Shown here: piece after piece, positions 13,457 through 46,229 of the stretch
Numbering within the stretch: the first letter of the stretch is position 1
Layout: every line of letters begins with the position of its first letter
NCBI GenBank assembly: GCA_963745235.1
Contig: CAVUXE010000037.1
Coordinates: forward strand, 128,001-192,000
Direction of reading: 5' to 3'
DNA: 64,000 nt
Source of the DNA: an uncultured Spirochaetota bacterium
GTDB lineage: Bacteria; Spirochaetota; Spirochaetia; SZUA-6; Fen-1364
Position numbers and translations under genes: made by a program
The notes under the pieces: model-generated
Seen by the model: the letters and a program-made list of their open reading frames with translations, nothing else
What the model was told of the DNA's origin: nothing
Databases searched by the model: none

Positions 13457-13465
13457 GAAACGACC

Positions 13466-16251: not shown

Positions 16252-16271
16252 GAAATGCAAGGAGCGAAGTC

Positions 16272-18869: not shown

Positions 18870-18904
18870 ACCGGGCAGATCTGGTCTGCCCGGCCCGCCC
18901 CTTT

Positions 18905-19321
18905 TCAGCTTCTCCCGTCCCGGCACGCTGCGCAGAGACATCCCCGGGGCTTGATGTACGCGTCAAAGTATTCCTTGCCGTAGTGGTAGGACAGCTCCTC
19001 CCCGGGTGAGATCCTCCTGCGCGAATAGATGATGACCCGCTTTCCGCGCGTGTAGGCGACACAGTTGGGCCTGCAGGAATGGTTGATGTAGCGGCTCAGG
19101 TTCTCCCGGCCGCGGCCGTCGATTGTCCAGCGGGAGTTCACCCGAAAGAGATACCTGCCTCCCCTGCGGTCTGCCGCCTCGGTTGCTAGCAGCGCGCCGG
19201 TGTATTCAATGACGAAATCACCCCGCTTGAAGCCCCGCGCGGCGAACAGTCCGAGCCCCGACTGACTTCTCCTTACGACAAAACAGTGCGCGATATCCCG
19301 CCCCTTCTTCTTCCCGGCCAT
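18905..19321 (-). CDS. SET-domain protein (putative lysine methyltransferase)
   Basis: 'GLGLFA', 'IEYTG', 'RYINHSCRPN', 'GEELSYHYG', post-SET 'CLCAAC'. Confidence 0.92.
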   Translation of the reverse strand: MAGKKKGRDIAHCFVVRRSQSGLGLFAARGFKRGDFVIEYTGALLATEAADRRGGRYLFRVNSRWTIDGRGRENLSRYINHSCRPNCVAYTRGKRVIIYSRRRISPGEELSYHYGKEYFDAYIKPRGCLCAACRDGRS

Positions 19322-23763: not shown

Positions 23764-24543
23764 ATGAGAATACGAAACGAGAACGAGTTTCCCATCGGGT
23801 ACACGGAGATCGGCGCCCATCGGGCGGAGACGCTCATGGATTTCGGCATCCTGCGCCTCGCGGCGGGGCAGGCCCATCGCTCCAGACCGGGGAAAGAAAG
23901 GGCATTCATCCTCCTGGGCGGCCAGGTGGAGCTGGCCTGGGAGGGACAAAAAGTCCGCGCTTCCCGTGAATCCCTGTTCGATCAGTCTCCCTGGTGTCTC
24001 AGCCTTCCGTCGAACGTCGAAGCGACAATCAGCGCAATTGGCGGGGAGGCTGAGATCTCCGTTCACGCGACGCAGAACCCGCGCCCGTTTCCCGCGCACC
24101 TCTACACGCCGGAAGAGTGCAGGAGCGAAGAACGCGGAAAAGGGACAATGAAGGAAACCTCCACGAGGATCGTCCGTACCATCATCGAGGACCCGCGCGC
24201 TTCATTCTCCAATCTCGTTCTCGGGGAGGTGATCACCTTCCCCGGCAAGTGGTCCAGCTACCCTCCGCATCACCACCCGCAGCCGGAGATCTACCACTAC
24301 AGGTTCCAGCAGCCAGGCGGCTTTGGTCTCTGCCAGATCGGCGAAGAGGCCTACCTGCTTCGAAACCGTGACACCGTCATCATTCCCCCGGGGGCGGTGC
24401 ATCCCCATGCCGCGGCGCCCGGCTATGCGATGTTCTATATCTGGGTGATACGGCACCTGGACGGCGCCCGCTACGGGACGCCCACTTTCGTCCCCGAGCA
24501 TTCCTGGGTCATGGACCCGAAAGCAAAGATCTGGGGCCCCTGA
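23764..24543 (+). CDS. iolB: 5-deoxy-glucuronate isomerase
   Basis: KduI/IolB cupin motif 'GKWSSYPPHHHPQPEIYHY'; 'ERGKG...RIVR'; inositol cluster context. Confidence 0.9.
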   Translation: MRIRNENEFPIGYTEIGAHRAETLMDFGILRLAAGQAHRSRPGKERAFILLGGQVELAWEGQKVRASRESLFDQSPWCLSLPSNVEATISAIGGEAEISVHATQNPRPFPAHLYTPEECRSEERGKGTMKETSTRIVRTIIEDPRASFSNLVLGEVITFPGKWSSYPPHHHPQPEIYHYRFQQPGGFGLCQIGEEAYLLRNRDTVIIPPGAVHPHAAAPGYAMFYIWVIRHLDGARYGTPTFVPEHSWVMDPKAKIWGP

Positions 24544-24634
24544 GGATCGGTTTCAGCAAGGCCTCGCGGGGCGCCCGCCGCTGGCGCGGGGTGCTGGCGT
24601 CGCACGCCCCCGAAGCCGTTCATTCAGGAAGGCT

Positions 24635-26159
24635 TCAGATCATCCCGTCCCAGCTGTTGCGGACCCGGGCCTCCCGCGCTTCCTTCTCCGAGAACCAGTG
24701 CGAGGTGACGCTCTTCAGCTCCGTGTAGAAGCGCACCCCGTCGGTGCCCATGGTGTGGAGGTCTCCGAAGAAGGATGCCTTGTGCCCCGTGAAGCCGAAC
24801 ATCGCCAGGGGAACAGGGATCCCGACGTTCACACCCACCATCCCGGCATGTGACCTGCGTGGTGAACTCCCGGGCGTAGTAGCCGTTCTGCGTGTAGATG
24901 ACGCTCCCGTTTCCGAACTCGCTCTCGTTCATCAGCTCCACGCCCTCGTCGAAGCTCGAAACGCGCTTGATGCAGAGCACCGGCCCGAAGATCTCCCGGT
25001 CCCCGACGCTCATGCCCTTCTTCACGTGATCGAAGAGCGTGGGGCCGAGGTAGAAGCCCTTCTCGTAGCCGGGCACCACGACATCCCGGCCGTCCAGGAC
25101 CATCTGGGCGCCTTCCTGGATACCCTTCTCGATCCAGGAGACGACGCTCGCGCGGTGCTCGGCGTTCACAAGCGGACCGAGCTGGCTCGTCTTGTCGTAT
25201 GCCGGCCCGATCTTGAGCCCCTCCATGACCTTGACGAGCGCTTCGATGAGCTGGTCCGCGACTGCCTCTTCCACCACGGCAACCGGCAGCGCCATGCACC
25301 GCTCCCCGGCGCATCCGCAGGCGGAGTTCACGATGCCCTTCGCGGTGCGCTCCAGGGGGGCATCGCTCATGACCAGCGCGTGGTTCTTTGCCTCGGTCAG
25401 GGCCTGCACCCGCTTGCCGTTGGCGGCCGCGGTGGCATAGATGTGCTTCCCGACGGAGGTGGAGCCGACGAACGAGATTCCTACCACGTCGGGATGGGTC
25501 AGCAGTATCTCGGCCTCCGCCCGCGAACAGGTGACGAGGTTCAGAACGCCCGGGGGAAGCCCTGCTTCCTGCCACAGCTCCATGATGCGCATGGAGGAGC
25601 GCGGGACAAAGCTCGCGGCCTTGAGCACCATGGTGTTGCCCGTCGCTATGCACAGCGGCGCCATCCAACCCATGGGGATCATCGCGGGGAAGTTCCACGG
25701 GGAGATCCCCGCGAACACGCCCAGGGGCTCCAGGTATTGCGTCGTGTCGTACCCGGGGGTGGCGTTCATGATTGCGGGCCCCTTGATGAGATGCGGGACT
25801 CCGGCCGCGTACTCCACCACTTCAATCACCTTGAGCACGTCCCCCATGGCCTCGTCCCAGACCTTGCCGTGCTCCTCGGCTACCAGGTGCGTGAGCTCAT
25901 CCACGTGGCGGTCCAGGATGCTCTTCATCCGAAACAGAACCTGCGCCCTCTTGTTCGGCGGCATGTCCGCCCAGGCGGGGAAAGCAGCCTTTGCCGCGGC
26001 AATTGCAGCCCGGACCTCCTCCGCAGTGCACTGCGGAGTGCGCGCAACGACCTCCCCGATGGAAGGATCGTAGCAGTCCATGTAATGGTCGGTCTTCGAG
26101 GTCTTCCACTCTCCGCCGACCCAGTATTTCAATTTCTTCGGCTCGACAGCTGTTATCAT
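24635..26159 (-). CDS. iolA: CoA-acylating (methyl)malonate-semialdehyde dehydrogenase, frameshifted near 24855
   Basis: 'PWNFPAMIP', 'SFVGST', 'AKNH', 'GCAGERCMA', 'EIFGPVL'; C-terminus '[12 protein letters not shown]...[13 protein letters not shown]' in ORF 24635-24841. Confidence 0.92.
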
Positions 26160-26202
26160 GTCGATCCTCCTTGCATTCATTCAGCCGGGCGCCAGCCAGG
26201 CG

Positions 26203-27288
26203 TCAGCCCTCCGGCAGCATGGCGTCCCTCATGAGGGCCGCCAGGTCCTCCGTGGCTTTGCAGAACTGCCGCAGCGTGCGCACCGACGCGCCGTACAGGT
26301 CGAACTGGTCCGGCCGCATGCCGTCCTCCTGGTAGGCCCGCGCGAAGTCAGGGAACTTTTTCAGCAGCTCTCCGACGATGACGGGGTCCACGGGAGTCCC
26401 GATGCGGCTCTCCACGGAAACGTCAGACGCGTTGAAACGCTTCTGCCACTCGTAGGGAGGGGAGATGACAACGTCTCCGCCGATGAGCTCGGACCAGTGA
26501 AGATGATTACGAAAGGCGGCGGAGAGGAGCCGCAGCCTGTAGCCTCGCTCCTGGTAGATCCCGTACGCCTTCTTGAAAACTGCGACTCCCGCCCAGTCCA
26601 GCACCGCCGGGTCGGCAATGATTCCTTTCCTCTCCGCGAGGGCTTTCAGCCAGTCATCGAGCCGTCCCACCATGAGGGTGCAGACCGGGCCCATGCGGCT
26701 CGTATCCTTGCCCTCCTTTTCCCGGCGTTTCAGTCCGCGCTCCACCGCCTCCGCTACCGCAATTGCCTGCGGCAGCGTGAAGCTCACCGTCGCGTTGACG
26801 CTGATCCCCCGGTAGGTGGCTTCCTCGATGGCCGCAACACCCGCGTGCGTGACGGGGATCTTCGTGATGATGTTGGGCGCCATGGCGTTGAATCGCTCAG
26901 CCTGCTCGACGATGGCCCGCGCGTTGCGGTACAGCCGCGGGTCAGTCTGGACGGAGAGTCTGCCGTTTCTTCCATTCTCCCGGTGAAAGATCGGCTCGAG
27001 GAGCTTTGCGGCCTTGATTGACATCTCCTCCACCAGGCGCCAGGCAACTTCGTCCTCTGTGGCCGCCGGCATCTCGGCGATGATTGCCGGGATCCGGTCC
27101 TTCCACAGGTGCAGCTCCTTTTTCAGAACGCCCAGGACGATGACCGGGTTGGCCGTGGCGCCCACGGCGCCATTCTGACTGATGGAAGAGGAAAGCTCTT
27201 CGATAGAGCAGGAGTCGTTCCACAGGGCTGTCGGGGTGGTGGATGTCATCTGGCGCAACAGCGTGGTTGTGACGGCTTGTGTCGGCAT
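26203..27288 (-). CDS. Transaldolase-family protein (paralog 1)
   Basis: 'LWNDS', 'GATANP', Schiff-base lysine 'NIITKIP', 'NATVSF', 'VGRLDD', 'AAFRN'. Confidence 0.9.
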   Translation of the reverse strand: MPTQAVTTTLLRQMTSTTPTALWNDSCSIEELSSSISQNGAVGATANPVIVLGVLKKELHLWKDRIPAIIAEMPAATEDEVAWRLVEEMSIKAAKLLEPIFHRENGRNGRLSVQTDPRLYRNARAIVEQAERFNAMAPNIITKIPVTHAGVAAIEEATYRGISVNATVSFTLPQAIAVAEAVERGLKRREKEGKDTSRMGPVCTLMVGRLDDWLKALAERKGIIADPAVLDWAGVAVFKKAYGIYQERGYRLRLLSAAFRNHLHWSELIGGDVVISPPYEWQKRFNASDVSVESRIGTPVDPVIVGELLKKFPDFARAYQEDGMRPDQFDLYGASVRTLRQFCKATEDLAALMRDAMLPEG

Positions 27289-27362
27289 AGGCGGGCCCAC
27301 GGAGTGGTAGAAAAAATATACTCATGGCTGTATGCTGGGGCAAAAGAAATGGGAGGTCGCCC

Positions 27363-28202
27363 ATGATCGAAAGACGTCGATTTGCCCTGAACAGGATAAC
27401 ATGCCCGTCACTCGGACTGGAGGATTTCTTTCGGTTCGCCGCGGAGCTCGGCATCTCCCGAGTCGAGCTGCGAAACGACCTCGCCGGCGGCCAGGTCACG
27501 GACAACCTTTCCCCGTCGCGAGCCGCGGCGCTGGCAAAGGCGAGCGGGGTTCAGATCATCACCATCAACGCCCTGCAGAAGTTCAACCTGACATCCGCCC
27601 GGCAGAAGGCGGCCGGCGAGCTGGAGAAGCTGCTCGACCTTGCTGAGGAACTGCGCTGCCCGGCGCTCGTCCTGTGCCCCAACAACGACACCGCTGACGC
27701 GAGGGACGCAAAGACACGGGTCGCGGAAGCGGTGGACGCCTTGAAAGCGTTCGGACCGTCGTTCATGAAGAAGGGAATCCTGGGGTACGTGGAGCCGCTC
27801 GGGTTTCACGAGTCGTCCCTGGCTTCTCTCATCGTCGCCGTGGAGACGATCAAGAGCTCGGGCTTCAGCTGCTACCGCACGGTGTACGACACTTTCCATC
27901 ACTACCTGGGACCGGACACGGAGAATGACATCGGCCCGCACTACGAGGTCACCAACACGGGCCTCATCCACGTCTCAGGCGTCGAGGCGGACATACCCAA
28001 GGAGAAGTATCGGGATGAGCATCGCGTTCTTCCCGGCCCGAAAGACCGCACTTTCTGCAGGGAGCAGGTTGCCCACCATGACCGCCTGGGCTACACCGGG
28101 GACATCTCTTTTGAGCCTTTCTCCGCGGAGGTTCAGCGCATGGGACGCGCGGACCTTGCCGCTGCCCTGAGAAAGAGCATGGAGTACCTGCAGGGGAGCT
28201 AG
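27363..28202 (+). CDS. iolI: Xylose-isomerase-like TIM barrel protein, probable inosose isomerase (IolI-like)
   Basis: 'FALNRI', 'VELRND', 'INALQKFN', 'VEPLGF', 'DTFHH', 'DEHRVL', 'SFEPFS'; inositol cluster context. Confidence 0.78.
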   Translation: MIERRRFALNRITCPSLGLEDFFRFAAELGISRVELRNDLAGGQVTDNLSPSRAAALAKASGVQIITINALQKFNLTSARQKAAGELEKLLDLAEELRCPALVLCPNNDTADARDAKTRVAEAVDALKAFGPSFMKKGILGYVEPLGFHESSLASLIVAVETIKSSGFSCYRTVYDTFHHYLGPDTENDIGPHYEVTNTGLIHVSGVEADIPKEKYRDEHRVLPGPKDRTFCREQVAHHDRLGYTGDISFEPFSAEVQRMGRADLAAALRKSMEYLQGS

Positions 28203-29213
28203 GCTTCGCTTCTCGACGTTCTTCCGCACGTCGATGGTCACGGCCACGACGATGATGATGGCGCGCGCCACCTGCTGGAAGTCCGCGGAGACGTTCAGGA
28301 TGTCCAGGCCGTTCTTCATGACGCCGATGATGAGGGCGCCGATGAGCGTGCCTCCCGCGCTTCCCAACCCTCCCGCAAGGCTCGTGCCCCCGATGACCGA
28401 CGCGGCAATGGCATCCAGCTCGTAGCCCAGGCCGAGGCCCGGCTGGCCGGAGCCGATGCGCGCGGTCAGAACGATGGCGGCAACGGCTGCGAGAAAGCCC
28501 GCGTACGTGTAGACCAGGATGAGGTAGCGGTTCGTCTTGATCCCCGAAACCACCGCCGCCTGCAGGTTGCTGCCCAGCGCATACGTGTAGCGGCCCCACA
28601 AGGTGTGCTGGAGTATCACGTAGGTGATCACCACGCAGACAATGAGCACGATTGCCGGGTTGGGGATGCCCAGGATGTCTCCCTGACCGATGACCTGGAA
28701 GGAGTCGATGAGACTTCCGCGGGGGCGGCCCTGCGAATAGATGAAGGCCCACCCGCGGGCGAAGGTCATCATGCCGAGGGTGGCGATGAACGGCGGGATC
28801 TTCAGCCAGGCGATCATGCTGCCGTTGACGAACCCGATGGCAACTCCGACTCCCAGACCGATAAGGACCACGGGAACAATCGGCCAGGGGTGCCCGCCCT
28901 TGTACAGCCGGTCCATGGCGTCCGCGCTCTGCACGAGGCTTGCCACTGCCACCGCGACAGCGGCCACCACCGCGCCGGAGGAAAGGTCGATCCCCGCGGT
29001 GATGATGCACATGGTGACGCCCAGGGCGATGATCCCGATGACGCTGATCTGGCGCAGCACGTTCAGGAGGTTGTTGATCCGCAGGAAGATTCCGCCGGAA
29101 AGGATTGCGATCACGATGCACAGCCCCACGAGGATCAGCAGGATGCTGTACTTGCTCATGAGCGCAAGAACGCGGGATTCCCTTCGGGGAGCAATCTTGA
29201 CGGCTTCAATCAC
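28199..29213 (-). CDS. Ribose/inositol-type ABC transporter permease (stop probably displaced by an indel near 28210)
   Basis: 'GIDLSSG', 'IPPFIATLGM', 'YELDAIAASVIGGTSL.GG.G'. The ORF as read runs 227 nt into iolI, but family similarity ends at 'IDVRKN' next to an off-frame TAG at 28199-28201. Confidence 0.88.
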
Positions 29214-29233
29214 GGCGTGCCTCCGGTCCGACC

Positions 29234-30756
29234 CTAATAGTAGTGCACTTCCTTGAACGTGCTGAGCGGCTCTCCGGTTGCCATGTGGAGGATCTTCTCC
29301 TGCGTGGCCTCCGCCCGGCTGATCTCTCCGACCTTCCGCCCTTCGTGCATGACCATGATCCTGTCCGACATGGCCAGGATCTCCGGCATCTCGGATGAGA
29401 TGAGGATGATTGCCTTCCCCTCCCTGGCAAGGTTGGACATGATCTTGTAGATCTCGCTCTTTGTGGCCACATCGATGCCCCGGGTTGGCTCATCCATGAT
29501 CAGGAGGGCCGGCACCGTGGCGAGCCAGCGCGACACGAGGACCTTCTGCTGGTTGCCGCCGCTCAGGAACATCACCAGCTGGTCCAGGCTGGGAGTCTTG
29601 ATCCGCAGCGACCCGACGGCGTCGTCGCAGAGCTTGCGAAGCGCGCGATGCTTGAGAAACAGGGCTGCTCAGGTTGTTGCGCAGGCTGGGCATGATGATG
29701 TTGTCCCGCACGGAAAGGTTCAGGTACAGCCCGCTCCTCTTCCTGTCCTCCGTCAGGAACGCCATCCCGTGCCGGATGGCGTCGAAGGGGGTGTCGATGC
29801 TCACCTGCTTCCCGCGGATCCTGATCGTCCCCGCCTGCCGGGGCGAGACGCCGAAGACTGACTCCATGACCTCGGTCCTTCCCGCGCCGATCAGGCCGGC
29901 CACCCCGAGGATCTCTCCTTCTCTCACGGAAAAGCTGATGTCGTGGAAGTAGCCGCGCCGGGTGAGCCCCTCCACCTCGAGGACCGGCTTGCCGACCTCC
30001 GCCTTTTCCTTCTGGAAGAACTGGTCGATGGTGCGGCCCACCATCATCTTGATGAGCTTTTCGCGGGTGAGGTTGACGCTGTCCTCATGACCCACGAACT
30101 CCCCGTCGCGGTAGACGCTTACCTCGTCGGTGATCGCGAACACCTCATCCATCTTGTGCGTGATGTAGATGACCGCCACGCCGCGGCTCTTCAGGTCCTT
30201 GATGATGGTGAACAGGTGTCCTACTTCTTTTTCCGTCAGGGCGGAGGTGGGCTCATCCATGATGATGAGATCCGCCTTCCGGGAGACCGCCTCCGCGATC
30301 TCCACCAGCTGCATCTGGGCAACGCTCAGCCTGCCCATGATCTGGCGCGGCTTGAGATTGATCTTCAGCTCTTTCAGGATCTCTTCCGAGGCCTTGTCGA
30401 TGGCCCGGTGATCGATCAGCCCCAGGCGGTTCTTCATCTCCCGGCCCAGGAAGATGTTCTGCGCCACGGTCATGTACGGGAGCGGGCTCATCTCCTGGTG
30501 GATCATGGAGATGCCCTTGGTGAGGGAATCATGGACGCTCTCAAAGGTCGACCGGCCGCCCGCGCAGCGTGATGGTGCCCGAGTCCGGCCTGTACAAGCC
30601 GATGGCAACCTTCATGAGGGTGGACTTGCCCGCCCCGTTTTCGCCCATGACGCCGTGCACCGTGCCCGGGCGGACATGGAGCTGCACTCCGTTCAGGGCG
30701 TGCACGCCGGGGAAACTTTTGTGGATGCCTTCCATCTCCAGGATGAACTCGCTCAC
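29234..30756 (-). CDS. Sugar ABC transporter ATP-binding protein (RbsA/MglA-like, two ABC domains), frameshifted near 30545 and 29600-29660
   Basis: 'KSFPGVHAL...[12 protein letters not shown]' (ORF 30541), 'MDEPTSAL...TEDRK' (ORF 29490), 'LSGGNQQKV...DEPTRGIDV' (ORF 29234). Confidence 0.88.
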
Positions 30757-30787
30757 GGCGTGCCCGCTCCTTGTCCAGGAAGTCGCG

Positions 30788-30824
30788 AAAGAAAACCAGG
30801 GGCCGGGCTTCCGCCCGACCCCTG
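30788..30824 (-). terminator. Stem-loop plus U-tract after the inositol substrate-binding gene
   Basis: Minus strand CAGGGGTCGGGC-GGAA-GCCCGGCCCCTG followed by GTTTTCTTT. Confidence 0.7.
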
Positions 30825-30836
30825 CCGCAGTCTGCC

Positions 30837-31765
30837 CTACTTCATGTACTTCTTGTAGTTGTCGTACGTCACTGGCTCGAACGGGATCGCCGTGAAGACC
30901 GGGACGTTTTGCGTGATTGATCAGCTTCAACGCCGTCTGGACGGCGCCGCGGCCCTGTGCTCCGCCGTTCTGGAACACGGTCATGTCCAGTCTCTTGTCC
31001 GCGATGAACTTCAAGCGCGTCCGAGGTGGCGTCAACGCCCGTGACAACCACCTTGTTCTTCATGCCCTTCTCTTCGAGGACCAGCACCGCGCCGAGGGCC
31101 ATCTCGTCATTGTTGCGCGATGATGGCGTCGATCTTCACGTCGCCGGCCAGCCAGTTCTCTACCACGGTGACTGCGTCAGGCCGCTGGAAGTTCGCGGTC
31201 TGCTCCCGCACGACCTTCATGCCGGGGTACTTCGCAAGCACGTCCTTGCTGCCCTGCGTGCGGCCGATCTGCGGCGCGCTTCCCATGGTTCCCATCAGGA
31301 TGGCGACATTTCCCTTGCCGTCGCAGCTTCTTGGCCACGAACTCGCCTTCCAGGTTGCCTGCCACCACCTCGGGGGAAGCGACGGCGACGGCCTTTCCGG
31401 GAACGAGGGCCGAATCATCCGGCTTGCGGTTGAAATACACCAGGGGGATGTTCGCTGCCAGGCATTCCTTGGTGATGGTTGGCGCAAGGGTCTGGTCAAT
31501 GACGTGGATGAGAATGGCATCCACACCCTGCGTGATGAAGTTCTCAACCTGCTTGAGCTGCTCGTTCGGGTCCCGTTTCCCGTCGGCTGCGACGACGTCG
31601 ACGTTGTCTCTTCGTCGCCTCGGCGGTCAGCTGGTCGAGCGCATAGCGCATGAACACGTCATTGAAGTCTTCGATGGTGACGCCCATCTTCAACTTCGGG
31701 GCGGCCGTCGCGATGAGCGGCGCTGCCATCAGAGCCACCAGCGCAAACACAAGGATCTTCCGCAT
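30837..31765 (-). pseudogene. Sugar (probably inositol) ABC transporter substrate-binding protein, RbsB-like, broken by several frameshifts (likely sequencing errors)
   Basis: Consecutive fragments: 'MRKILVFALVALMAAPL...EDFNDVF', 'VDAILIHVID...PLVYFNR', 'GKGNVAILMG...GMKVVREQTANFQR', 'MALGAV...VVVTGVDAT', '[15 protein letters not shown]', ending KKYMK*. Confidence 0.8.
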
Positions 31766-31799
31766 ACGCACCTCCTTGAGAGATTTTTCGCGTTTGCAA

Positions 31800-31813
31800 T
31801 GCAAACGCTTGCA
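31800..31813. promoter_or_regulatory. LacI-type operator upstream of the inositol ABC genes
   Basis: TGCAAACGCTTGCA, one mismatch from the perfect palindrome at 38933-38946; minus-strand TTGACA lies at 31884-31889. Confidence 0.65.
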
Positions 31814-31899
31814 TAATGGGGCTTTAAAAAGCGGAAATACTTCCGCATGGTGAACCAATAATAAAACCGTTCCCATAGACAGTTGTCAAGCAAAAACTG

Positions 31900-32992
31900 G
31901 AGCCACTTATCCGGATTCGGGATCATCTGGTCCCGGATCAGCACCACCAGGTCGTCGACTGCCTTGCAGAACTGCCGCAGGGTCCTGCGGGTCGCCCCGT
32001 AGTCATCGAACTCCTCGGCCGTCATGCCCTTCTCGTCGTATGCGCGGCGGAAGTCCTCGAACTTCCGCTCCAGCTCCTCCAGGATCTTCGGATCCACCGG
32101 GGCGTCCATGCGGCTTCCACCGTCGACGTCGGAAGCGTTGAACCGCTTCTGCCACTCGAACGGGGGGGAAATCACGACGTCTCCGCCGATGAACTCGCTC
32201 CAGTGCAGGTGGTTGCGGAACGCCGCGGACAGGAGGCGCAGCCGGTAGCCGCGCTCCCGGTAGATTGCGTAGGCCTTCTTCATCACGGCAACCCCCGCCC
32301 AGTCGAAGATCCGCGGATCTGCGATGATGCCCTGCTTCTCCGCCACGACCTTCAGCCAGTCGTCGAGCCGGCCCACCATCAGCGTGCACACCGGCCCCAT
32401 GCGGCTGATGTCCTTCCTTTCTTTCTCCCGACGGTTCAGTCCCCGCTCCACGGCCTCCGCCACCGCAATTGCCTGCGGAAGCGTGAAGCTCACCGTGGCG
32501 TTGATGCTGATGCCCCGCTACGTGGCCTCCTCGATGGCCTGCAATCCCCGCGCGTGTGGCCGGGATCTTCACGATCATGTTGGGGGCAAGGGAGTCGAAG
32601 TGCTCCGCCTGCGCGGCAATTGCCGCGGCGTCCCGATAGAGCCGCGGATCCGTCTGAATGGAGAGCCGGCCGTTCCTTCCTTTTTCCCGATCGAAGACCG
32701 GCTTCAGCAGCTCCGCCGCCTTCAGCGACATCTCCTCCACGAGGCGCCAGGCCACCTCTCCCTCCGTGGCGCATGCCATTTCAGTGATGAGCTCGCCGAT
32801 CCTGTCCTTCCACTGGTTCCACTCCTTTTTCAGCACGGCGAGCACGATCACCGGGTTGCAGGTCGCGCCGACCGTGCCGTTGTCCTGGATCGAAGCCCCC
32901 AGCTCCTGCAGCGAGCAGGAGTCGTTCCAGAGCACGGACGGGGTGGTCCGGGTCATGAGGTGCAAAGGTGTTTCGTTCTGGTTGTTGCTCAT
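31900..32992 (-). CDS. Transaldolase-family protein (paralog 2), frameshifted near 32520-32545; 3' end approximate
   Basis: N-half 'LWNDSC...GATCNP...LSIQTDPRL...NMIVKIP' (ORF 32003-32992); C-half 'VCTLMVGRLDD...AAFRNHLHWSE' (ORF 31729-32493); clearly paralogous to 26203-27288. Confidence 0.87.
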
Positions 32993-33035
32993 GTGTGTGG
33001 TTCTCCTCCCTGTGATCGGCGTGAGGCTCTGTCCC

Positions 33036-33929
33036 TCACAGCCCGGCTTTCTCCCGGATGAACGCGCGGGCCTTGACCGCGTACTCGAACGGGTTCGCCT
33101 TGGCCGGATCCTGCTCAGCTTCCACGACGTACCAGCCCCGGTAGCCCTTCCTGTCGAGCAGGCGGAAAACCGGCTCGAAGTTCACGCCGCCATCCCCGGG
33201 GACCGTGAAGACTCCCTCCTTCACCGCGCGCAGGAAGCTCATGCGCTCCTTCTTCACCCGCTCGAGCACCGGCAGGCGCACGTCCTTCAAGTGCACGTGC
33301 CGCACGCGCCCGACGTGACGCTCCAGCACGGCAACATAGTCCTCACCCGAGAAGGCAAGGTGGCCTGAGTCATACAGGAGAGAGAGAAGAGAGGGATCCG
33401 TCATTTCCATCAGCCGGTCGACCTCCGCAGCGGTCTGTACCCCGGTTCCCATGTGGTGATGGTAGGTCAGGGTCATATCCTTCTCACGCGCCCGCTCCCC
33501 GAGCCTGTTCAGCCCCTCCGCGAGCCGCTTCCATTCCTCGTCAGTGAAGCGGGGCTTGCCCTCAAGCACGGGGACGTCCTGCATGCCCTGGATGGAATGG
33601 CCCTGTTCCGCGGCGCCAATGACGCGAGCGCCCACGGCGCAGAGAAAATCACGGTGCAGGAGAAATGCCTTCTCGACTTCCTCGTAGGGCCGGGTGGTGA
33701 GGAAGGAGCTGAACCAGGCGTTGCAGATGGTGAGCCCTCGCAGGTCCAGATAGTGCTTGAGCACCGCGGGGTCCCGGGGATACTTGTTGCCCACCTCGCT
33801 TCCTTCGTAGCCGGCGAGGGCCATTTCGGAGATGCACTGCTCGAAGGTGTTGCCGCCCCCGAGCTCAGGCAGGTCATCGTTGGTCCAGGCAATCGGAGCG
33901 ATTGCAAGGCGCACTCTCCTGTCTTTCAT
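33036..33929 (-). CDS. iolE: myo-inosose-2 dehydratase
   Basis: 'IAPIAWTNDDLPELGG', 'YHHHMGT', 'HVHLKD', 'FTVPGDG', 'VEAEQDP'. Confidence 0.96.
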   Translation of the reverse strand: MKDRRVRLAIAPIAWTNDDLPELGGGNTFEQCISEMALAGYEGSEVGNKYPRDPAVLKHYLDLRGLTICNAWFSSFLTTRPYEEVEKAFLLHRDFLCAVGARVIGAAEQGHSIQGMQDVPVLEGKPRFTDEEWKRLAEGLNRLGERAREKDMTLTYHHHMGTGVQTAAEVDRLMEMTDPSLLSLLYDSGHLAFSGEDYVAVLERHVGRVRHVHLKDVRLPVLERVKKERMSFLRAVKEGVFTVPGDGGVNFEPVFRLLDRKGYRGWYVVEAEQDPAKANPFEYAVKARAFIREKAGL

Positions 33930-33951
33930 CTGACGTTCCTTTTCGTGGTCC

Positions 33952-35817
33952 CTAGAACTTCCTGGCAGATTCGACTTCCCGCCCGATCTTCTTCGCCGCC
34001 TCCACTACTTTCGGGTTCTCGGAGACCTGCGCCGTTCCGACGCGCCACCACGACTCGTAGTCGTGCGTCATTGACTTCTGGGTCACCTTCACGTCGATCA
34101 CGGTGGAGACCGCGCCCGCCATGGCGTTTTTCACCGCGTCGCCGAACTCCGCAAGCGACTTCGGCGAGTACCCGCGGGCCCCGTAGCTTTCCCCGTTCTT
34201 CGCGAAGTCCAGGGGCATCAGGCTGCCGGTGAGCCTGCCTGTTTTCGGATCTCTCCGCCGGAGGTCGTTTCCGAACTTCACGACGCCCTGGCTGGTCTGG
34301 AGGTTGTCGATGCACTGGTAGCCGGCGTTGTCGAAGACGACGACGTGGATCTTGATTCCTTCCTGGATGGCCGTCAAGAGCTCGGAATGCAGCATCACGT
34401 ACGAGCCGTCCCCGACCAGGGCAAACACCTCCCGATGAGGCGCGGCCATCCGCGCGCCGACTGCCGCCGCTATCTCGTACCCCATGCAGGAAAAGCCGTA
34501 TTCCATATGGTAGGAGTCAGGCTCGCGGGAACGCCATACCCGCTGCAGATCGCCCGGAAGGCTCCCGGAGGCCCCCACCACAATGGCGTCCCGGGGCAGG
34601 AGCTTCTCGTTCAGCTCGCCGAGGAGCCTCACCTGGGAGAGCCCCGCCGGATCTTCCTCCGAGTACAGCCTGTCCTCTTCCTTTCGCCACTCCGCGCGGA
34701 TCTTTTCCACCTCGCCTTTCCAGCCGGCTTTCCACCCGGCAGAGCGCAACGCCTGCGTCAGCGCCTTCAGGCTTTCCCGGGCGTCGGCTACGACCGTAGT
34801 CGCGTTCATCTTGGCGGCATCAAAGGAGCTCACGTTGATCGTGAGGATGACGGAGCTCGGGTTCTTGAACAGGTTGCGGGAACCGGTCGTGAAATCGCCC
34901 AGCCGGGTCCCCACGGCAATGACCAGGTCCGCTTCATGGGCAATGCGGTTGGCGGCAAGCCCGCCGGTGACTCCCACGCCGCCCAGGTTGAACGGTTCCT
35001 CCCACGATATGACCCCTTTGCCCGCCTGCGTCTCGCCCATGGGCACGCCGAATGCGGCGCAGAAATCCGAAAGCTCTCTGCCCGCCTCGGAGTAGCGGAC
35101 CCCCCCGCCGCAGATGACGAGTGGTCGGGACCGGGACTTTACCAGCGCGACTGCCCGCTCGATCTGCCCCTTTGTCGGCAGGCGTCGCTCCACGTGATGG
35201 ACCCGCTTCTCCAGGAACTCCACGGGGTAGTCATACGGCTCCCCCTGAACGTCCTGGGGCAGGGCAAGCGTCACGGGACCTGTTTCCGCCGGGTCAGTCA
35301 GCACCCGCATGGCGTTGATGCATGCGGCCATGAGCTGTTCCGGCCTGTTGATCCTGTCCCAGTACCGCGAGACGGCGCGAAAAGCGTCGTTTGCCGTGGC
35401 CGTGTAGTCGTCCCATTGCTCCACCTGCTGGAGAACCGGATCCGGTTGCCGGCAGGCGAATACGTCCCCGGGCAGGAGAAGCACCGGGATTCGATTGACC
35501 AGGGCAACTCCGGCCGCTGTCACCATGTTGAGCGCCCCGGGTCCGATTGAGCTGGTCACGGCGAAGATCTGCTTCCTGTTCATCTGCTTCGCGTAGCCGA
35601 TGGCCATGTGGGCCGCGCCCTGCTCGTTGTGTCCCTGGAAATAGGTCAGGCCGTGGTTCCCCTGGGCAAGCGCTTCACCAAAGCCCACAACGTTGCCGTG
35701 CCCGAATATCCCGCCCACGCCCTTCACGAACTTCGTCTCGACCCCGTCGAACTCCGCATACTGCGCGTCGAGGAAGCGCAGGAGCGCCTGGGCCATTGTC
35801 AGCCGGAGAGTCTTCAT
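33952..35817 (-). CDS. iolD: 3D-(3,5/4)-trihydroxycyclohexane-1,2-dione acylhydrolase (ThDP-dependent)
   Basis: 'RLTMAQAL', 'IFGHGNV', 'TSSIGPG', 'PDPVLQQ', 'EYGFSCMGYE', 'VGDGSY'. Confidence 0.96.
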   Translation of the reverse strand: MKTLRLTMAQALLRFLDAQYAEFDGVETKFVKGVGGIFGHGNVVGFGEALAQGNHGLTYFQGHNEQGAAHMAIGYAKQMNRKQIFAVTSSIGPGALNMVTAAGVALVNRIPVLLLPGDVFACRQPDPVLQQVEQWDDYTATANDAFRAVSRYWDRINRPEQLMAACINAMRVLTDPAETGPVTLALPQDVQGEPYDYPVEFLEKRVHHVERRLPTKGQIERAVALVKSRSRPLVICGGGVRYSEAGRELSDFCAAFGVPMGETQAGKGVISWEEPFNLGGVGVTGGLAANRIAHEADLVIAVGTRLGDFTTGSRNLFKNPSSVILTINVSSFDAAKMNATTVVADARESLKALTQALRSAGWKAGWKGEVEKIRAEWRKEEDRLYSEEDPAGLSQVRLLGELNEKLLPRDAIVVGASGSLPGDLQRVWRSREPDSYHMEYGFSCMGYEIAAAVGARMAAPHREVFALVGDGSYVMLHSELLTAIQEGIKIHVVVFDNAGYQCIDNLQTSQGVVKFGNDLRRRDPKTGRLTGSLMPLDFAKNGESYGARGYSPKSLAEFGDAVKNAMAGAVSTVIDVKVTQKSMTHDYESWWRVGTAQVSENPKVVEAAKKIGREVESARKF

Positions 35818-35829
35818 GACCGCCTCCCG

Positions 35830-36837
35830 TCAAACGTCCACTTCGGAAATATTCACCGGGCGGCCTTCGGCCAGGGACTTCTTTGCGGCGAATCCCATGA
35901 GCAGCGGTTTCAGGCCGTCAATGTCACCCACGGGGCATGGTTTCCCGTCAATTACCATGTCGAAGAACGCGTTCATTTCGTCCAGGAAAGCCTGGTGATA
36001 GCGCTCCAGGAAGAAGTACAGCGGCTTGTCACCAGCCACCCCGATTTCGTTGGAGAGGACCACCGAGGTCGGAGTGTCGTTGGCGCAGGAAAGCGCCCCC
36101 TTGGACCCGAAGACCTCCACGCGCTGGTCATAGCCGTACGTTGCCTTGCGCGAGTTGTCGATCACGCCGATGCAGCCGTTCTGGAACGTGATCGTCACCA
36201 CGGCGGTGTCCACGTCTCCGGCCTTTCCAATGGCGGGATCCACGAGCACCGCGCCCTTGGCGTAGACCTCGACCGCATCGGATCCGGCCAGGTAGCGTGC
36301 CATGTCGAAGTCGTGAATGGTCATATCCAGGAAGATCCCGCCTGAGACTTTCACGTATTCGGGAGAAGGGGGAGCGGGGTCCCGAGAGGTGATGCGAAGG
36401 ATGTGCGGTTCCCCAATGGCACCCTGGTTGACGAGGTCTCGGACCCGGCGGAAATTGTGATCGAACCTCCGGTTGAACCCGACCTGGAGCGTCACCCCGG
36501 CTTTTTTCGCCGCGGCGAGCGCCTTCTTCACTTTCGCCACCGTGAGGTCCACGGGCTTCTCGCAGAAGATGTGCTTCCCCTTTTCAGCCGCCGCAATGAC
36601 CATATCCGCGTGCGTGTCGGTGGAGCTGCAGACCAGGACCGCTTTTATCTCGGGGTCCGCCAGCAGGTCGTGAGCGTCGCTACTCACCCGGGAAACGCCG
36701 AGCCCCTTCGCCCAATCACGCACCGTGTCAGCCGCCACGTCCGCGATGCGGGAAATCTGCGCGCGCGGGATGTGATGCGCAATGTTTTCCGCGTGGATCT
36801 TTCCGATCCTCCCCGCCCCGATCAGTCCGATCTTCAT
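35830..36837 (-). CDS. iolG: myo-inositol 2-dehydrogenase
   Basis: 'IGAGRIGKIHA', 'FCEKP', 'GFNRRFD', 'ITSRDP', 'DMTIHDFD', 'YGYDQRVEVFG', 'FFLERY'. Confidence 0.94.
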   Translation of the reverse strand: MKIGLIGAGRIGKIHAENIAHHIPRAQISRIADVAADTVRDWAKGLGVSRVSSDAHDLLADPEIKAVLVCSSTDTHADMVIAAAEKGKHIFCEKPVDLTVAKVKKALAAAKKAGVTLQVGFNRRFDHNFRRVRDLVNQGAIGEPHILRITSRDPAPPSPEYVKVSGGIFLDMTIHDFDMARYLAGSDAVEVYAKGAVLVDPAIGKAGDVDTAVVTITFQNGCIGVIDNSRKATYGYDQRVEVFGSKGALSCANDTPTSVVLSNEIGVAGDKPLYFFLERYHQAFLDEMNAFFDMVIDGKPCPVGDIDGLKPLLMGFAAKKSLAEGRPVNISEVDV

Positions 36838-37865
36838 GTGTCTCCTCCTTGTGAAAGCCGCACGAGCTCGTCCCGGCGGAACGACTGGGTTGCGGCAAAA
36901 GCCACCCTGGTTGCCATGACTCCGTCGCGGACGCTGACCTGCGGTTTGCGTCCCTCCCGGATGCAATCCACGAACTCCTGCGTTTCCGCGCAGTACGCCG
37001 CGCCGAATCGTTCCAGGAAGTTCTGCGAGCACTCCCGCACCGCGCCCCGGTCGTCGAGGAGCTCCACCATGTCCTTCTGCGGAACGCTGGCGATCCGCAG
37101 CGCCGCCCGCGTCCCGATGATCTCCGTCTCCACGGCATACCCGTGGGCAGCGGTCCTGCCGGCGAGCAGGAAGGCCATGGCATCGTTGTCGAACCGTATG
37201 AAGGCGGCCAGGTTGTCCCCGTCACCGTACTGCGCAAACTCGGGGTGCGCGTAGCAGCCTCCGGCGGCGAAGACCGTTGTCGCCTCGGCGCCGAGCATCC
37301 ATCTGGCCAGGTCGATGTCGTGCACCGCCATGTCCAGGAACTGGCCGCCGGAGGACGGCGCAAAGCGGATGGCACCGTCGATGGCGGATTCCGGGTCAAC
37401 AGAGTAGCCTCGAAAGAGTATGGGACGGCCGATATACCCGTCCTGGATCAGCTTGCGGGCCCTGCTGTACGACTCATCGTAGCGGCGCATGAATCCAAGC
37501 ATGAATACCTTCCGTGGATGCTTCGCCACGGCCTCTTCCGCCAGGACGCACTCTTCCAGGCTGATGCCAAGGGGCTTCTCGCAAAAGACATGGAAGCCGG
37601 CCTCCAGGGCCTGCCCGATCTGCCGGCAGTGCTCGCCGGAGCTCGAGGCAATGAAAATGGCATCCAGGTCCCTGTTCTCCAGCATCCCCTCGAACGAGGC
37701 GTAGCCTTTCGTCACCCCCCACGTCTCCTGGGCGTGACGCACCCGGTCCGGTTCCAGCGCGCACACCGCCGCCAGCTCGGCCCCCGCCGTTCGCACCGCG
37801 ATGTTTTCAGCGTGCTTCATCCCCAGTCTGCCAAGGCCGACAATCCCGACCCGTACCTTCTTCAT
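36834..37865 (-). CDS. Gfo/Idh/MocA oxidoreductase; second inositol dehydrogenase (stereoisomer unknown)
   Basis: 'GLGRLG', 'FCEKP', 'GFMRRYD', 'DMAVHDID', 'FLERF'; ATGA-coupled to iolG. Confidence 0.88.
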   Translation of the reverse strand: MKKVRVGIVGLGRLGMKHAENIAVRTAGAELAAVCALEPDRVRHAQETWGVTKGYASFEGMLENRDLDAIFIASSSGEHCRQIGQALEAGFHVFCEKPLGISLEECVLAEEAVAKHPRKVFMLGFMRRYDESYSRARKLIQDGYIGRPILFRGYSVDPESAIDGAIRFAPSSGGQFLDMAVHDIDLARWMLGAEATTVFAAGGCYAHPEFAQYGDGDNLAAFIRFDNDAMAFLLAGRTAAHGYAVETEIIGTRAALRIASVPQKDMVELLDDRGAVRECSQNFLERFGAAYCAETQEFVDCIREGRKPQVSVRDGVMATRVAFAATQSFRRDELVRLSQGGDT

Positions 37866-37877
37866 GGAGCCTCTCAC

Positions 37878-38951
37878 TTACGATCCGCGCCCGCCCGTTG
37901 TCTCGCGGATCACCAGCTTCGGAGCCAGGAGCGTGCGCCGGGGATCACCTCGACCGCTCCCCGCCCTGCGGCCCCTGATGAGCTCCAGGAGCCGCTCGCA
38001 CGTCGCCAGGGAAAGCTCCTCCCTCGGCTGGTGGATCGTGCTGAGGGACGGTCGGACGCAGGCGGCGAGATCCGTATCGTCATATCCGATCAGGGCTATT
38101 CCCTCCGGCACGCGCAGACCGAGCCTGTTCACCGCCAGGAGAGCGCCAATGGCCATGAGGTCATTGAGGGCAAGGATGGCGTCGTACTCGCGGATCCTCC
38201 CCGCGACGCTCATCACGGCGTTGTAGCCGGACTCCATAGTCTGGTCCCCGAAGAGGAGGTCATCAGGACCGAGTGCGACCGCGGATTCCGAAAGCGCGCG
38301 CCGCGCGCCGGCAAGGCGGAGCACGAACTCACGCTCGGTGACTTTCTCCCCCGGAGTGGCGATGCACAGGATTCGCTTTTTCCCGAGCGAGCAGAGGTAC
38401 CGCGCCGCGATGTATCCTCCATACTCGTTGTCCGGGTAGATGATGTCCACGTCGGGCGGGCAGAGGTCCGGCGGCGGATAATGGGAGAACACAAAGGGCA
38501 TGTCCTTGGCATGGAGGTAGTCGATGAGCTCCCGCTCGAACACGGGCTGCACAATGATGAGCCCGTCCACCTTCTTGCGAGCGACAAGCTTCCTGACGTT
38601 GTTGCCGCCGGTGAAGTGGTTGTTCAGGAACGAGACAAGAAGGTCGATATCGTTGCATTCCAGGACGCTTCTCAGGGAGCTGTGCAGCGTGCCGTGATAC
38701 AGGTTCACCCCCAGCTGGTCATAGTCCGGGGGAAGAATGATTCCGATGGTTCCGACGCGTCGGGTGATGAGGCTGCGCGCGTGCGTGTTGAAGTCGAAGC
38801 CGAGCCCATCCGCGATCTCGCGGACACGTTTGCGGGTCTTCTCTGGGATCAGGGACGATTCATTCAGGCTCCTTGAAACCGTGGCCATGCTGACTCCCGC
38901 AGCTCTTGCCACGTCTCTGAGCGTGATCTCTTTGCAAACGTTTGCATCCAT
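37878..38951 (-). CDS. LacI-family regulator of the inositol cluster
   Basis: 'ITLRDVARAAGVSMATVSRSLN', 'NDLMAIG', 'IGYDD', 'LSTIHQP'. Confidence 0.93.
   Translation of the reverse strand: MDANVCKEITLRDVARAAGVSMATVSRSLNESSLIPEKTRKRVREIADGLGFDFNTHARSLITRRVGTIGIILPPDYDQLGVNLYHGTLHSSLRSVLECNDIDLLVSFLNNHFTGGNNVRKLVARKKVDGLIIVQPVFERELIDYLHAKDMPFVFSHYPPPDLCPPDVDIIYPDNEYGGYIAARYLCSLGKKRILCIATPGEKVTEREFVLRLAGARRALSESAVALGPDDLLFGDQTMESGYNAVMSVAGRIREYDAILALNDLMAIGALLAVNRLGLRVPEGIALIGYDDTDLAACVRPSLSTIHQPREELSLATCERLLELIRGRRAGSGRGDPRRTLLAPKLVIRETTGGRGS
38933..38946. promoter_or_regulatory. Perfect LacI-type operator inside the first codons of the regulator gene
   Basis: TGCAAACGTTTGCA, a 14-bp perfect palindrome. 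Confidence 0.65.
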
Positions 38952-39036
38952 TCGATCATGCAGTAAGGCATTTGTTTTCATTTGTCAAGCTCGAATCAAG
39001 TCAGCAGCGCCTCCTCCGAAGTGCCCGGAGTGACTA

Positions 39037-43532: not shown

Positions 43533-44318
43533 TCACGCGGACGCCCCGGAATAGCGTCGGCTTCCTCGCGTCCACACGATCCTGGCAGCCACGAAAAGCA
43601 GCGCCGCAAGGGCAAAAGCCCCGGCGAGAGTCTGCCAGGACAGGCGCCCCGCGAGGGCCTGCGCCGGCACCGTTGTCGCGAAGGCCACGGGCACCAGGAA
43701 GGTCAGACCGACGCGAAGCCAGCGGGGATACAGGGTAACCGGCCAGCGTCCCGCCTCGTAGATGGACTGGAAGATGACCAGGATGTTTTCCACCCGCACA
43801 AACCAGAAAGAGAGAGAGGCGAGGATCACCCAGAAGCTGTAGACGATCAGCCCACCGGGAACCAGGGCCGCCGCGAATGCCGCCAGCTGGAGCGCTCCCA
43901 CGTGGGTCCCCAGTCTGCCAAGGGAGACGATGATCACTGCGATCCCGAGGACGAAATCAGTGAGCTTCCAGATCTCCACGCGCTGGATGCTCGCAAGGAG
44001 CTGGGAGTCTTCGGGCTTGGTCAGGGTGAAATCCAGGGTCCCTTCGCGCACGCTCTCGATGAGCTGTTCCATGCTCGGCTGGATGACCAGGCGGATGGCG
44101 CCTCCTACCAGGAAGAACACCCCGATCAGCGCCGCCACTTCCTCGGGGCGCCAGCCGCCCAGTGTGGCGGTGTAGGAGAATACGACGGCAAGGCCCCCGA
44201 ACGCCGTGCCGAGGTCAATGGCGGATTCCAGGAGCTGCAGGAAGAAGTTTGTGCGGTAGGCAAGCTCTCCCATGGCGCCGACGCGAAAGAAGACCCACAG
44301 GAGACGAAGCAGCCTCAT
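43533..44318 (-). CDS. ABC-2 family (DUF990-type) transporter permease
   Basis: 'LAYRTNF', 'VREGTLDFTLTKPEDSQ', 'RWPVTLYP'; start at ATG 44318 overlaps the upstream stop. Confidence 0.88.
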   Translation of the reverse strand: MRLLRLLWVFFRVGAMGELAYRTNFFLQLLESAIDLGTAFGGLAVVFSYTATLGGWRPEEVAALIGVFFLVGGAIRLVIQPSMEQLIESVREGTLDFTLTKPEDSQLLASIQRVEIWKLTDFVLGIAVIIVSLGRLGTHVGALQLAAFAAALVPGGLIVYSFWVILASLSFWFVRVENILVIFQSIYEAGRWPVTLYPRWLRVGLTFLVPVAFATTVPAQALAGRLSWQTLAGAFALAALLFVAARIVWTRGSRRYSGASA

Positions 44319-46129: not shown

Positions 46130-46229
46130 CCGCCCAGTATAGGCGGACAGGGCGCGGGGGAACAATCCGGGCCGACAGCTCGGCGCGGGGTTTTCATGAA
46201 ACTTGTCCGTGAGTACACTTCCGGGCATA

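Follow-up and report, generated by a model that had tools for sequence, protein, structure and literature searches.

Transaldolase-family genes in a spirochaetal inositol cluster without IolC and IolJ: a candidate kinase-free route for 2-deoxy-5-keto-D-gluconate

The DNA analysed here, called the window, is the whole 64-kb stretch from position 128001 to 192000 of contig CAVUXE010000037.1, with a G+C content of about 63%. It belongs to a metagenome-assembled genome (MAG) of a soil bacterium from the phylum Spirochaetota (GCA_963745235.1; 5.85 Mb, 104 contigs, completeness 85.7%, contamination 5.9%). Listing of open reading frames (ORFs) and profile scans place an inositol catabolic cluster at positions 23764-38981. 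The cluster encodes two dehydrogenases (IolG1 and IolG2), IolE, IolD, an IolB-type isomerase, IolA, an IolI-like protein, an ABC importer and a LacI-family regulator, together with two proteins of the transaldolase (TAL) family, TAL1 and TAL2 (Table 1). The genes from lacI to the ABC permease form one tight minus-strand array, a long operon of which lacI is the first gene, and the iolB gene is convergent with iolA. TAL2 begins 44 bp past iolE, and TAL1 lies directly upstream of iolA with a gap of 23-44 bp. The flanks are unrelated to inositol: a UbiA prenyltransferase gene lies on one side, genes for a DUF3857/transglutaminase protein and sensor kinases on the other, and MFS and ABC-2 genes are also found. 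A first-pass annotation of the same DNA had listed these genes with their coordinates, the position of the two TAL genes next to iolE and iolA and the unrelated surroundings, and the profile scans agree with this gene list.

The canonical Bacillus subtilis route, reportedly described by Yoshida and co-workers, employs IolG, IolE, IolD, IolB, IolC, IolJ and IolA; in it, 2-deoxy-5-keto-D-gluconate (DKG) is phosphorylated by IolC and then cleaved by IolJ. The window contains neither a PfkB-type kinase nor a class II aldolase, as the first-pass annotation had stated for the 64 kb: the genome-wide profile matches all lie elsewhere, and tblastn with four PfkB and two class II aldolase queries detected none. 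The search of the entire genome that the same annotation had recommended had a divided outcome. No IolC exceeds the 300-bit cut-off in this 85.7%-complete genome, in which 18 PfkB proteins match TIGR04382, and DUF2090 has no match in the whole genome. Class II aldolases do exist, with eight matches to a generic, not IolJ-specific, model, none of them in the window or beside iol genes. Two kinase candidates were considered and discarded. The best IolC-like match (C15:210722-211666) reaches 227.9 bits against 300, does as well on a fructokinase model (218.7 bits) and is surrounded by HtrA, NuoF-like and GltD-like genes; an adjacent pair of PfkB kinase and class II aldolase (C54:130982-133080) belongs to a different sugar ABC cluster, and on the IolC model the kinase of this pair reaches 101 bits. 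A housekeeping transaldolase of the short type is encoded elsewhere in the genome, on contig C75 (TIGR02134, 336.8 bits, cut-off 281.95), and the pentose-phosphate pathway therefore does not depend on TAL1 or TAL2. A third TAL-family protein of the genome, 471 aa long and very divergent (C53:96290-97702), scores at best 62.7 bits on an NCBIfam model whose cut-off is 396.

Relatives of TAL1 are widely distributed. The protein database yielded 8000 scored candidates, all with E <= 0.001, the 120 listed being 71-96% identical; of 597 candidate stretches in genomes that represent species, 583 code for a relative. Gene neighbourhoods were counted within 10 kb on either side of the best 80 of these 583 loci (65-76% identity), with ORFs of at least 100 aa clustered and representatives annotated. 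The hosts of these 80 loci belong to Spirochaetota, Bacteroidales, Acidobacteriota, Chloroflexota, Dormibacterota and other phyla. The genes that recur around TAL encode IolB (37 loci; the representative scores 285 bits, cut-off 205), IolG (36), IolD (35), LacI (31), aldehyde dehydrogenase (28), IolE-like proteins (28) and zinc-dependent alcohol dehydrogenase (Zn-ADH; 23). IolB or IolD is present in 39 of the 80 loci and both are present in 33. In 31 of 78 loci no more than 300 bp separate the TAL gene from an iol gene, and in 11 of 78 the same holds for an aldehyde dehydrogenase gene. In Bacteroidales the arrangement condenses into compact operons of a sodium:solute symporter (SSF), TAL, IolB, IolD, aldehyde dehydrogenase, IolE and IolG. 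When the 80 loci were searched by tblastn with four PfkB queries, two of them true IolC, and two class II aldolases, a single weak PfkB match (L051) and no aldolase appeared, with positive controls. Neighbour clusters 1, 4, 11 and 12 were discarded as antisense ORFs inside TAL or iolD of GC-rich loci; three further recurrent clusters, c9 (1202 aa), c36 (in the position of a binding protein) and c42, were left without family annotation.

The distributions of TAL and IolC are near-complementary. Among the 33 genomes whose TAL locus holds both IolB and IolD, a group chosen by the TAL feature itself and made up mostly of MAGs, none has IolC above the cut-off (best score 147 bits); this includes all seven TAL-bearing Bacteroidales. 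A sample of 401 genomes from the phylum of genome G006 contains, besides the central genome, 26 with IolD above the cut-off, and 13 of these also have IolB. Nine of the 13 carry IolC only and four TAL only (62-73% identity), with none carrying both or neither; IolC is on the IolD contig in all nine, and TAL adjoins IolD in two of the four. The remaining 13 IolD-bearing genomes have no IolB above the cut-off and neither IolC nor TAL, just IolD-like, IolE-like and GFO genes, and they were set apart as a different system and not counted against complementarity. Their IolD-like gene (812-847 bits; loci L113-L117, in G633, G826, G683, G509 and G569) has no company but IolE-like and GFO genes. This arrangement suggests that homologues of IolD and IolE serve another purpose here, one not yet described. 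In the 401-genome sample of the phylum of G002, IolB is found in six genomes besides the central one, all six with IolC and none with TAL. The window's own phylum, again represented by 401 genomes, is less orderly. IolD occurs in 15 genomes besides the MAG, with IolC above the cut-off in nine and TAL in three (46-49% identity); seven have IolC only, one TAL only (G272), two both (G318 and G326) and five neither, namely G101 (276.6 bits), G397 (195 bits), the closed genomes G283 and G380, and the fragmented G208. The mutual exclusivity with IolC that the first-pass annotation had wished to see profiled is thus borne out by the split of nine against four in the phylum of G006 and broken by the two spirochaetes that possess both genes.

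Could the TAL genes play an accessory part? Ordinary transaldolases in the cluster might balance fructose-6-phosphate (F6P), glyceraldehyde-3-phosphate (GAP) and pentose phosphates while a non-orthologous kinase and aldolase, encoded elsewhere, deal with DKG. The complementarity of IolC and TAL in the IolB- and IolD-bearing genomes of the G006 phylum, and the lack of IolC above the cut-off in all 33 carriers, argue against such a division of labour. The same is true of the housekeeping transaldolase already present and of the replacement of the catalytic Glu across the whole subfamily, described below. The genome has its 18 PfkB and eight class II aldolase matches, it is 14% incomplete, and one spirochaete locus, L107, has TAL beside intact iolC and iolJ; all this speaks for the accessory role. 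The adjacent pair on C54 is among these matches; the low IolC score of its kinase and its place in another sugar cluster count against it. On balance we judge an accessory role distinctly unlikely.

What kind of enzyme is TAL1? With a PF00923 score far above the gathering score of 27, this protein of the long type (365 aa) is a member of the transaldolase/FSA superfamily. The NCBIfam transaldolase models all remain far under their cut-offs (NF002881, the best, 121.5 against 367; TIGR00876, 91.5 against 233.75), as does the FSA model TIGR00875 (41.3 against 245.95 bits). No model in NCBIfam release 20 claims the clade, and its database names are merely generic, for instance 'transaldolase' in Protein Atlas. 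The AlphaFold2 (AF2) model has a mean predicted local distance difference test score (pLDDT) of 95.0, and its best Foldseek match is the transaldolase of Corynebacterium glutamicum (3r5e; E 2.2e-18, template modelling scores 0.82/0.83). Active-site positions were mapped by MAFFT alignment of TAL1 with Escherichia coli TalB (L121) and by an alignment of 82 family members. The fold is that of classical transaldolases such as TalB and 3r5e, and several active-site residues are shared with them: the Schiff-base lysine K147 (TalB K132) is invariant (82/82), and N169/T171 (TalB N154/T156), R213 (R181) and R264 (R228) are likewise invariant in the family alignment. The TalB S226 position is occupied by Ala in TAL1. 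For TalB D17, HMMER pairs the invariant D29, in a WND motif at the end of the predicted first strand, with the Asp of the WLDD motif of 3r5e, whereas MAFFT gives Q42; D29 is probably the equivalent residue. The catalytic Glu of TalB, E96, is replaced by Gln118, which also aligns with the Glu of the C. glutamicum enzyme, and the F178 position by Met210; Gln and Met are found at these positions in 82 of 82 members. Judged from these alignments, the TAL subfamily is neither classical transaldolase nor FSA, because Gln replaces Glu96 while the F178 position holds Met and not Tyr. Unlike the genes of the classical enzymes, those of the subfamily sit in iol operons.

The hallmarks of FSA are Gln at the transaldolase Glu position and Tyr at the F178 position. 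PDB titles list E96Q/F178Y and E60Q/F132Y as engineered changes from transaldolase to aldolase, consistent with these hallmarks. TAL1 shares the first of them, and an FSA-like lyase would permit the cleavage of DKG into malonate semialdehyde and free dihydroxyacetone (DHA); a DHA kinase would then phosphorylate the DHA, or it would be reduced to glycerol. The genome of the window indeed carries a Dak1-type DHA kinase (C15:120016-120939). Of the 33 genomes that carry TAL, nevertheless, just nine have such a kinase, and the seven Bacteroidales among them all lack it; neither a DHA kinase nor a glycerol dehydrogenase is among the recurrent neighbours of TAL, and the second hallmark is missing from all 82 members. 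TAL1 is also longer than FSA, with 365 residues against the type of about 220. We regard the lyase as an unlikely alternative to transfer.

Based on these observations, we propose a variant of the myo-inositol pathway in which a TAL enzyme would act on unphosphorylated DKG, yielding malonate semialdehyde for IolA and passing DHA to GAP, and we assign this model a probability of about 60%. Inositol would be taken up by the ABC importer and converted to DKG by the canonical steps of IolG, IolE, IolD and IolB. TAL1, with TAL2 as a paralogue, would then act in place of phosphorylation by IolC and cleavage by IolJ. Lys147 is predicted to form a Schiff base with the keto group of DKG, after which the C3-C4 bond would be cleaved and malonate semialdehyde released, to be converted to acetyl-CoA and CO2 by IolA, the product of the adjacent gene. 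The DHA unit still bound to the enzyme would be transferred to GAP, giving F6P. In DKG the keto group is at C5, C6 is a free CH2OH and the configuration at C3/C4 resembles that of fructose. The C4-C6 portion of DKG is a DHA unit with a free CH2OH and therefore, by established chemistry and by extension from it, would be a donor of the transaldolase type; phosphorylated DKG would be unsuitable, because its 'C1' hydroxyl is blocked. Transfer to GAP is favoured over the release of free DHA, since few carriers have Dak1 and transfer needs no further enzyme. We infer DKG as the substrate, GAP as the acceptor and the products from comparative genomics and pathway chemistry, and it is the donor chemistry of DKG together with the phylogenetic profile that makes this the best reading of a bypass of IolC and IolJ. 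We speculate that a benefit may lie in moving the cost of phosphorylation to phosphofructokinase, which may be dependent on pyrophosphate in some of these groups.

A number of observations weigh against this model. Replacement of Glu96 by Gln in E. coli TalB is reported to cripple transfer, and Gln is typical of the lyase FSA; it is precisely this residue that occupies position 118 in the TAL subfamily. Intact iolC and iolJ in a homologous cluster, which the first-pass annotation had considered damaging to a bypass, were found in one spirochaete genus. Locus L107 (G318) has the order iolJ-iolC-iolB-TAL-iolA-ABC-iolD-iolE-iolG-iolG, in which iolJ is a class II aldolase and iolC scores 342.6 bits, above the cut-off of 300, and in G326 there are two iolD loci, one accompanied by TAL and iolA, the other by iolJ and iolC. 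The TAL proteins of this low-GC genus are 45-49% identical to TAL1 and have the same active-site signature. TAL is therefore not always a replacement, and in that genus it accompanies the canonical enzymes. Moreover, neither IolC nor TAL occurs in three Spirochaetota genomes that do have iolB and iolD and of which two, G283 and G380, are closed; missing IolC alone is therefore no proof of a TAL route, and further IolC-less solutions exist. Related genomes are not independent of one another, the group of 33 was selected by TAL, and the absence of IolC from the MAG is weakened by a genome completeness of just 85.7%, most other carriers being MAGs too. As to G380, the iol genes of its locus L106 (C1:3935001-3955000, 7123-19301 therein) encode IolI-like, IolG, IolB, IolD and IolE proteins and are followed by genes for a PGK-like kinase, an archaeal-type (type II) GAPDH, a malic-enzyme-like protein and a LarA-family racemase, neither IolC nor TAL being present in the genome; this gene set may represent another way to handle the DKG step.

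About half of the 80 loci, in addition, have no iol genes, and the TAL gene keeps company with Zn-ADH, ABC transporter, aldo-keto reductase (AKR), GFO-type dehydrogenase or aldehyde dehydrogenase (ALDH) genes instead. In some of them Zn-ADH stands with an ABC transporter and TAL, in others ALDH is grouped with Zn-ADH, GFO, AKR and TAL, and in a FastTree phylogeny clades with such contexts interleave with the iol clades. DKG therefore cannot be the sole substrate of the TAL family. Non-iol loci of this kind (L017, L021, L026, L027, L030, L037, L043, L048, L054 and L080) hint at a kinase-free catabolism of other polyols or ketoses. In ten acidobacterial iol-TAL loci (L042, L056, L057, L062, L073, L075, L077, L079, L083 and L088) a DegT/DnrJ-type aminotransferase and APC-family permeases are encoded as well, and the substrate of these clusters may be an aminocyclitol such as scyllo-inosamine. 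One could conclude from the non-iol layouts, the interleaved tree and the aminotransferases that the TAL of the inositol clusters, too, acts on some other unphosphorylated ketose, a product of the extra GFO or zinc dehydrogenase or of aminocyclitol or methyl-inositol breakdown. This conclusion does not account for IolC being absent precisely where TAL occurs, and the compact Bacteroidales operons offer no other step for TAL; we consider it highly improbable that DKG is not the substrate there. A broader idea, which we put forward tentatively and at less than even odds, is that the Gln-type TAL proteins are a widespread class of DHA transferases for unphosphorylated ketoses or keto-acids that would work without the canonical Glu. 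They would serve kinase-free routes, among them the conversion of DKG and GAP to malonate semialdehyde and F6P, and the members linked to Zn-ADH, ALDH, GFO or ABC transporter genes would do likewise for polyols and ketoses. The proposal of the first-pass annotation that TAL replaces IolC and IolJ at the DKG step thus survives in part. It is favoured by co-clustering in several phyla, by the absence of IolC above the cut-off in 33 of 33 carriers, by the split of nine against four and by the separate housekeeping transaldolase, while the complete set of genes in L107, the contexts without inositol genes and the incomplete genome count against it.

How does the proposed TAL-dependent route compare with known systems? 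It would share with the canonical B. subtilis pathway IolG, IolE, IolD, IolA and an IolB-type protein, recognized here by curated models or Pfam, as well as the predicted end products, malonate semialdehyde that goes on to acetyl-CoA and a C3 unit that enters glycolysis; it differs in having no IolC above the cut-off, no DUF2090 fusion and a TAL-family gene in the operon. The closest parallel in logic is the sulfo-TAL pathway with its 6-deoxy-6-sulfofructose transaldolase (SqvA/BmSF-TAL; PDB 8bc3 and 8c4i), reportedly described in 2020 by Frommeyer and by Liu. There, an unphosphorylated ketose with an acidic tail donates DHA to GAP to form F6P, the acidic aldehyde passes to a dehydrogenase, and a kinase and an aldolase are replaced, as would be the case here. 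The sulfofructose enzyme (SF-TAL) differs in being short (about 220 aa), in substrate and pathway and in not having the Gln/Met active-site signature of TAL1. TAL1 is not a member of the SF-TAL family, as the match to 8bc3 (E 2.2e-6) covers residues 111-184 only. A further natural inositol pathway without IolC and IolJ is the variant of Thermotoga maritima, which is said, after Rodionova in 2013, to run through 5-keto-L-gluconate with IolM, IolN and IolO. That pathway is reported to do without IolE, IolD and IolB as well, whereas IolE, IolD and an IolB-type protein are present here, and on the IolM model, with its cut-off of 450 bits, the Zn-ADH neighbours of the TAL family score 216.

In soil and gut, myo-inositol derived from phytate and plant matter ranks among the major sources of carbon. 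How bacteria break it down is regarded as solved, and annotation relies on the iolBCDE core. A transaldolase-dependent branch, if it is real, would account for iol clusters without iolC and would widen the predicted range of inositol use to take in Acidobacteriota, Bacteroidales (Rikenellaceae), Spirochaetota and Chloroflexota. It would be the second natural case, after sulfoglycolysis, of a transaldolase in place of a kinase and an aldolase, and it would reveal a transaldolase clade that functions without the canonical catalytic Glu. Should the broader idea of a DHA transferase class also hold, the cost of phosphorylation would shift from an ATP-dependent kinase to phosphofructokinase in soil Acidobacteriota, gut Bacteroidales, Spirochaetota and Chloroflexota. 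Comparative genomics lends good support to the putative iol pathway with a bypass like that of sulfo-TAL, and a small set of recombinant enzymes would allow a direct test of it. The first-pass annotation knew of no description of such a route, and a full-text literature search, with most subscription journals and supplements outside its scope, likewise turned up no publication in which a transaldolase is given a part in inositol catabolism. In the portions available of a 2022 survey of iol clusters (PMC9430895), clusters without a fourth core gene are put down to incomplete genomes or errors, and transaldolase goes unmentioned.

As assembled, four genes of the cluster, those for IolA, the ABC ATPase, the binding protein and TAL2, have no continuous frame, which the first-pass annotation did not report. 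The breaks became apparent from stop-to-stop translation and from tblastn with the proteins of L019, a collinear relative that served as the frame reference and was also aligned as DNA. The IolA and TAL2 homologies each run through two frames, that of the ATPase through three and that of the binding protein through three with shifts at five sites. In IolA the last 74 residues are shifted to the other frame, and the two frames are 94% and 97% identical to L019. The DNA alignment attributes the breaks to nine uncompensated 1-nt insertions, every one of them +1 and none in a homopolymer. Is the cluster then a decaying pseudogene array without a working pathway in its host? Four of its genes, as assembled, contain nine frameshifts between them, and one of the four also has an in-frame stop, which could be taken that way. 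Yet every frameshift is an insertion of the same kind, and the out-of-frame segments are still 88-97% identical to the L019 proteins. Over positions 24000-33500, Logan contigs from four soil or peat runs (X1, X2, X3 and X5), belonging to four studies, were compared with the window. At nine of nine insertion sites the contigs of two to four of the four runs drop one letter, each site in each run being represented by one contig at a depth of 3-7 and one run possibly being the source sample. Decay is accordingly rejected as hardly credible. Because the contigs of other runs omit the letter at every site, the nine insertions are best read as assembly errors, and the genes would be intact in the population. 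TAL2, which is 70-77% identical to TAL1 and whose TAL homology stops near 31909, additionally contains an in-frame TAG at 32518-32520, where 71 of 82 family members have a Tyr codon; the TAG may stem from misassembly, or a redundant paralogue may have acquired a genuine nonsense mutation. With nine insertions in 9.5 kb the local density of errors is high, and other genes of the MAG may be falsely split in the same manner.

Table 1. Genes of the inositol cluster, 1-nt insertions relative to L019 and letters dropped by Logan contigs (window coordinates; scores in bits).
Feature	Position	Strand	Evidence
IolB-type 5-deoxyglucuronate isomerase, spirochaete type	23764-24543	+	Pfam KduI/IolB 196.4; TIGR04378 111.5, below cut-off 205
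IolA, CoA-acylating malonate/methylmalonate-semialdehyde dehydrogenase	24635 (24624)-26180	-	TIGR01722 468.2, cut-off 448.5
TAL1, intact Gln-type TAL-family protein, candidate DKG (trans)aldolase	26203-27288 (or 27300)	-	PF00923 138.5
IolI/IolH-like xylose-isomerase-type TIM barrel	27324-28202	+	PF01261 63.2; no NCBIfam match
ABC permease, intact	28206-29213	-	BPD_transp_2 144.8; 94% identical to L019 orthologue over 336 aa
ABC ATPase, two nucleotide-binding domains	29237-30813	-	ABC_tran pieces; L019 orthologue 526 aa
Periplasmic sugar-binding protein of ABC importer	30840-31804	-	Peripla_BP_4 fragment; L019 orthologue 320 aa
TAL2, second Gln-type TAL copy	31729-32992	-	two PF00923 pieces, 56.8 and 37.3, profile positions 1-122 and 140-266
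IolE, inosose dehydratase	33036-33929	-	TIGR04379 418.2, cut-off 290
IolD, trihydroxycyclohexane-1,2-dione acylhydrolase	33952-35817	-	TIGR04377 914.6, cut-off 715
IolG1, inositol 2-dehydrogenase	35830-36837	-	TIGR04380 478, cut-off 355
IolG2, second GFO/IDH/MocA dehydrogenase	36834-37877	-	TIGR04380 340.1, slightly below cut-off 355; intact relative to L019
LacI-family regulator	37878-38981	-	Pfam LacI and Peripla_BP_3; 77% identical to L019 orthologue, full length
Insertion in iolA	~24860		
Insertions in ABC ATPase gene	~29666, ~30550		
Insertions in binding-protein gene	~30912, ~31016, ~31116, ~31322, ~31608		
Insertion in TAL2	~32541 (~32538-32541)		
Letter dropped	24861		runs X1, X2, X3
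Letter dropped	29669		all four runs
Letter dropped	30551		runs X1, X3, X5
Letter dropped	30911		runs X1, X2
Letter dropped	31013		runs X1, X3, X5
Letter dropped	31115		runs X1, X3
Letter dropped	31322		runs X1, X3, X5
Letter dropped	31610		runs X1, X3, X5
Letter dropped	32538		runs X2, X5

Several smaller features of the locus and its relatives deserve mention. Homologues of the IolB-type protein (41-52% identity) adjoin iolD in three other spirochaete genomes (L105, L106 and L111), and orthologues of the IolI-like gene occupy the same position in L018, L019 and L022. The ORF of IolG1 is open to 37032, with homology beginning at residue 66. L019, the closest collinear relative, is without TAL1 between the IolI-like gene and iolA, the interval that corresponds to 26180-27283 of the window, and keeps the TAL gene after iolE, while L018 holds both copies, so that the TAL copy number varies among close relatives. 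A second IolA/MMSDH paralogue is encoded elsewhere in the MAG (C29:153528-154808) and is 77% identical over residues 15-442. Outside the cluster, the window contains on the minus strand an ORF of 669 aa (44318-46324) that combines an ABC ATPase with an ABC-2 membrane domain and may reflect a genuine fusion or an assembly error that ran two genes together.

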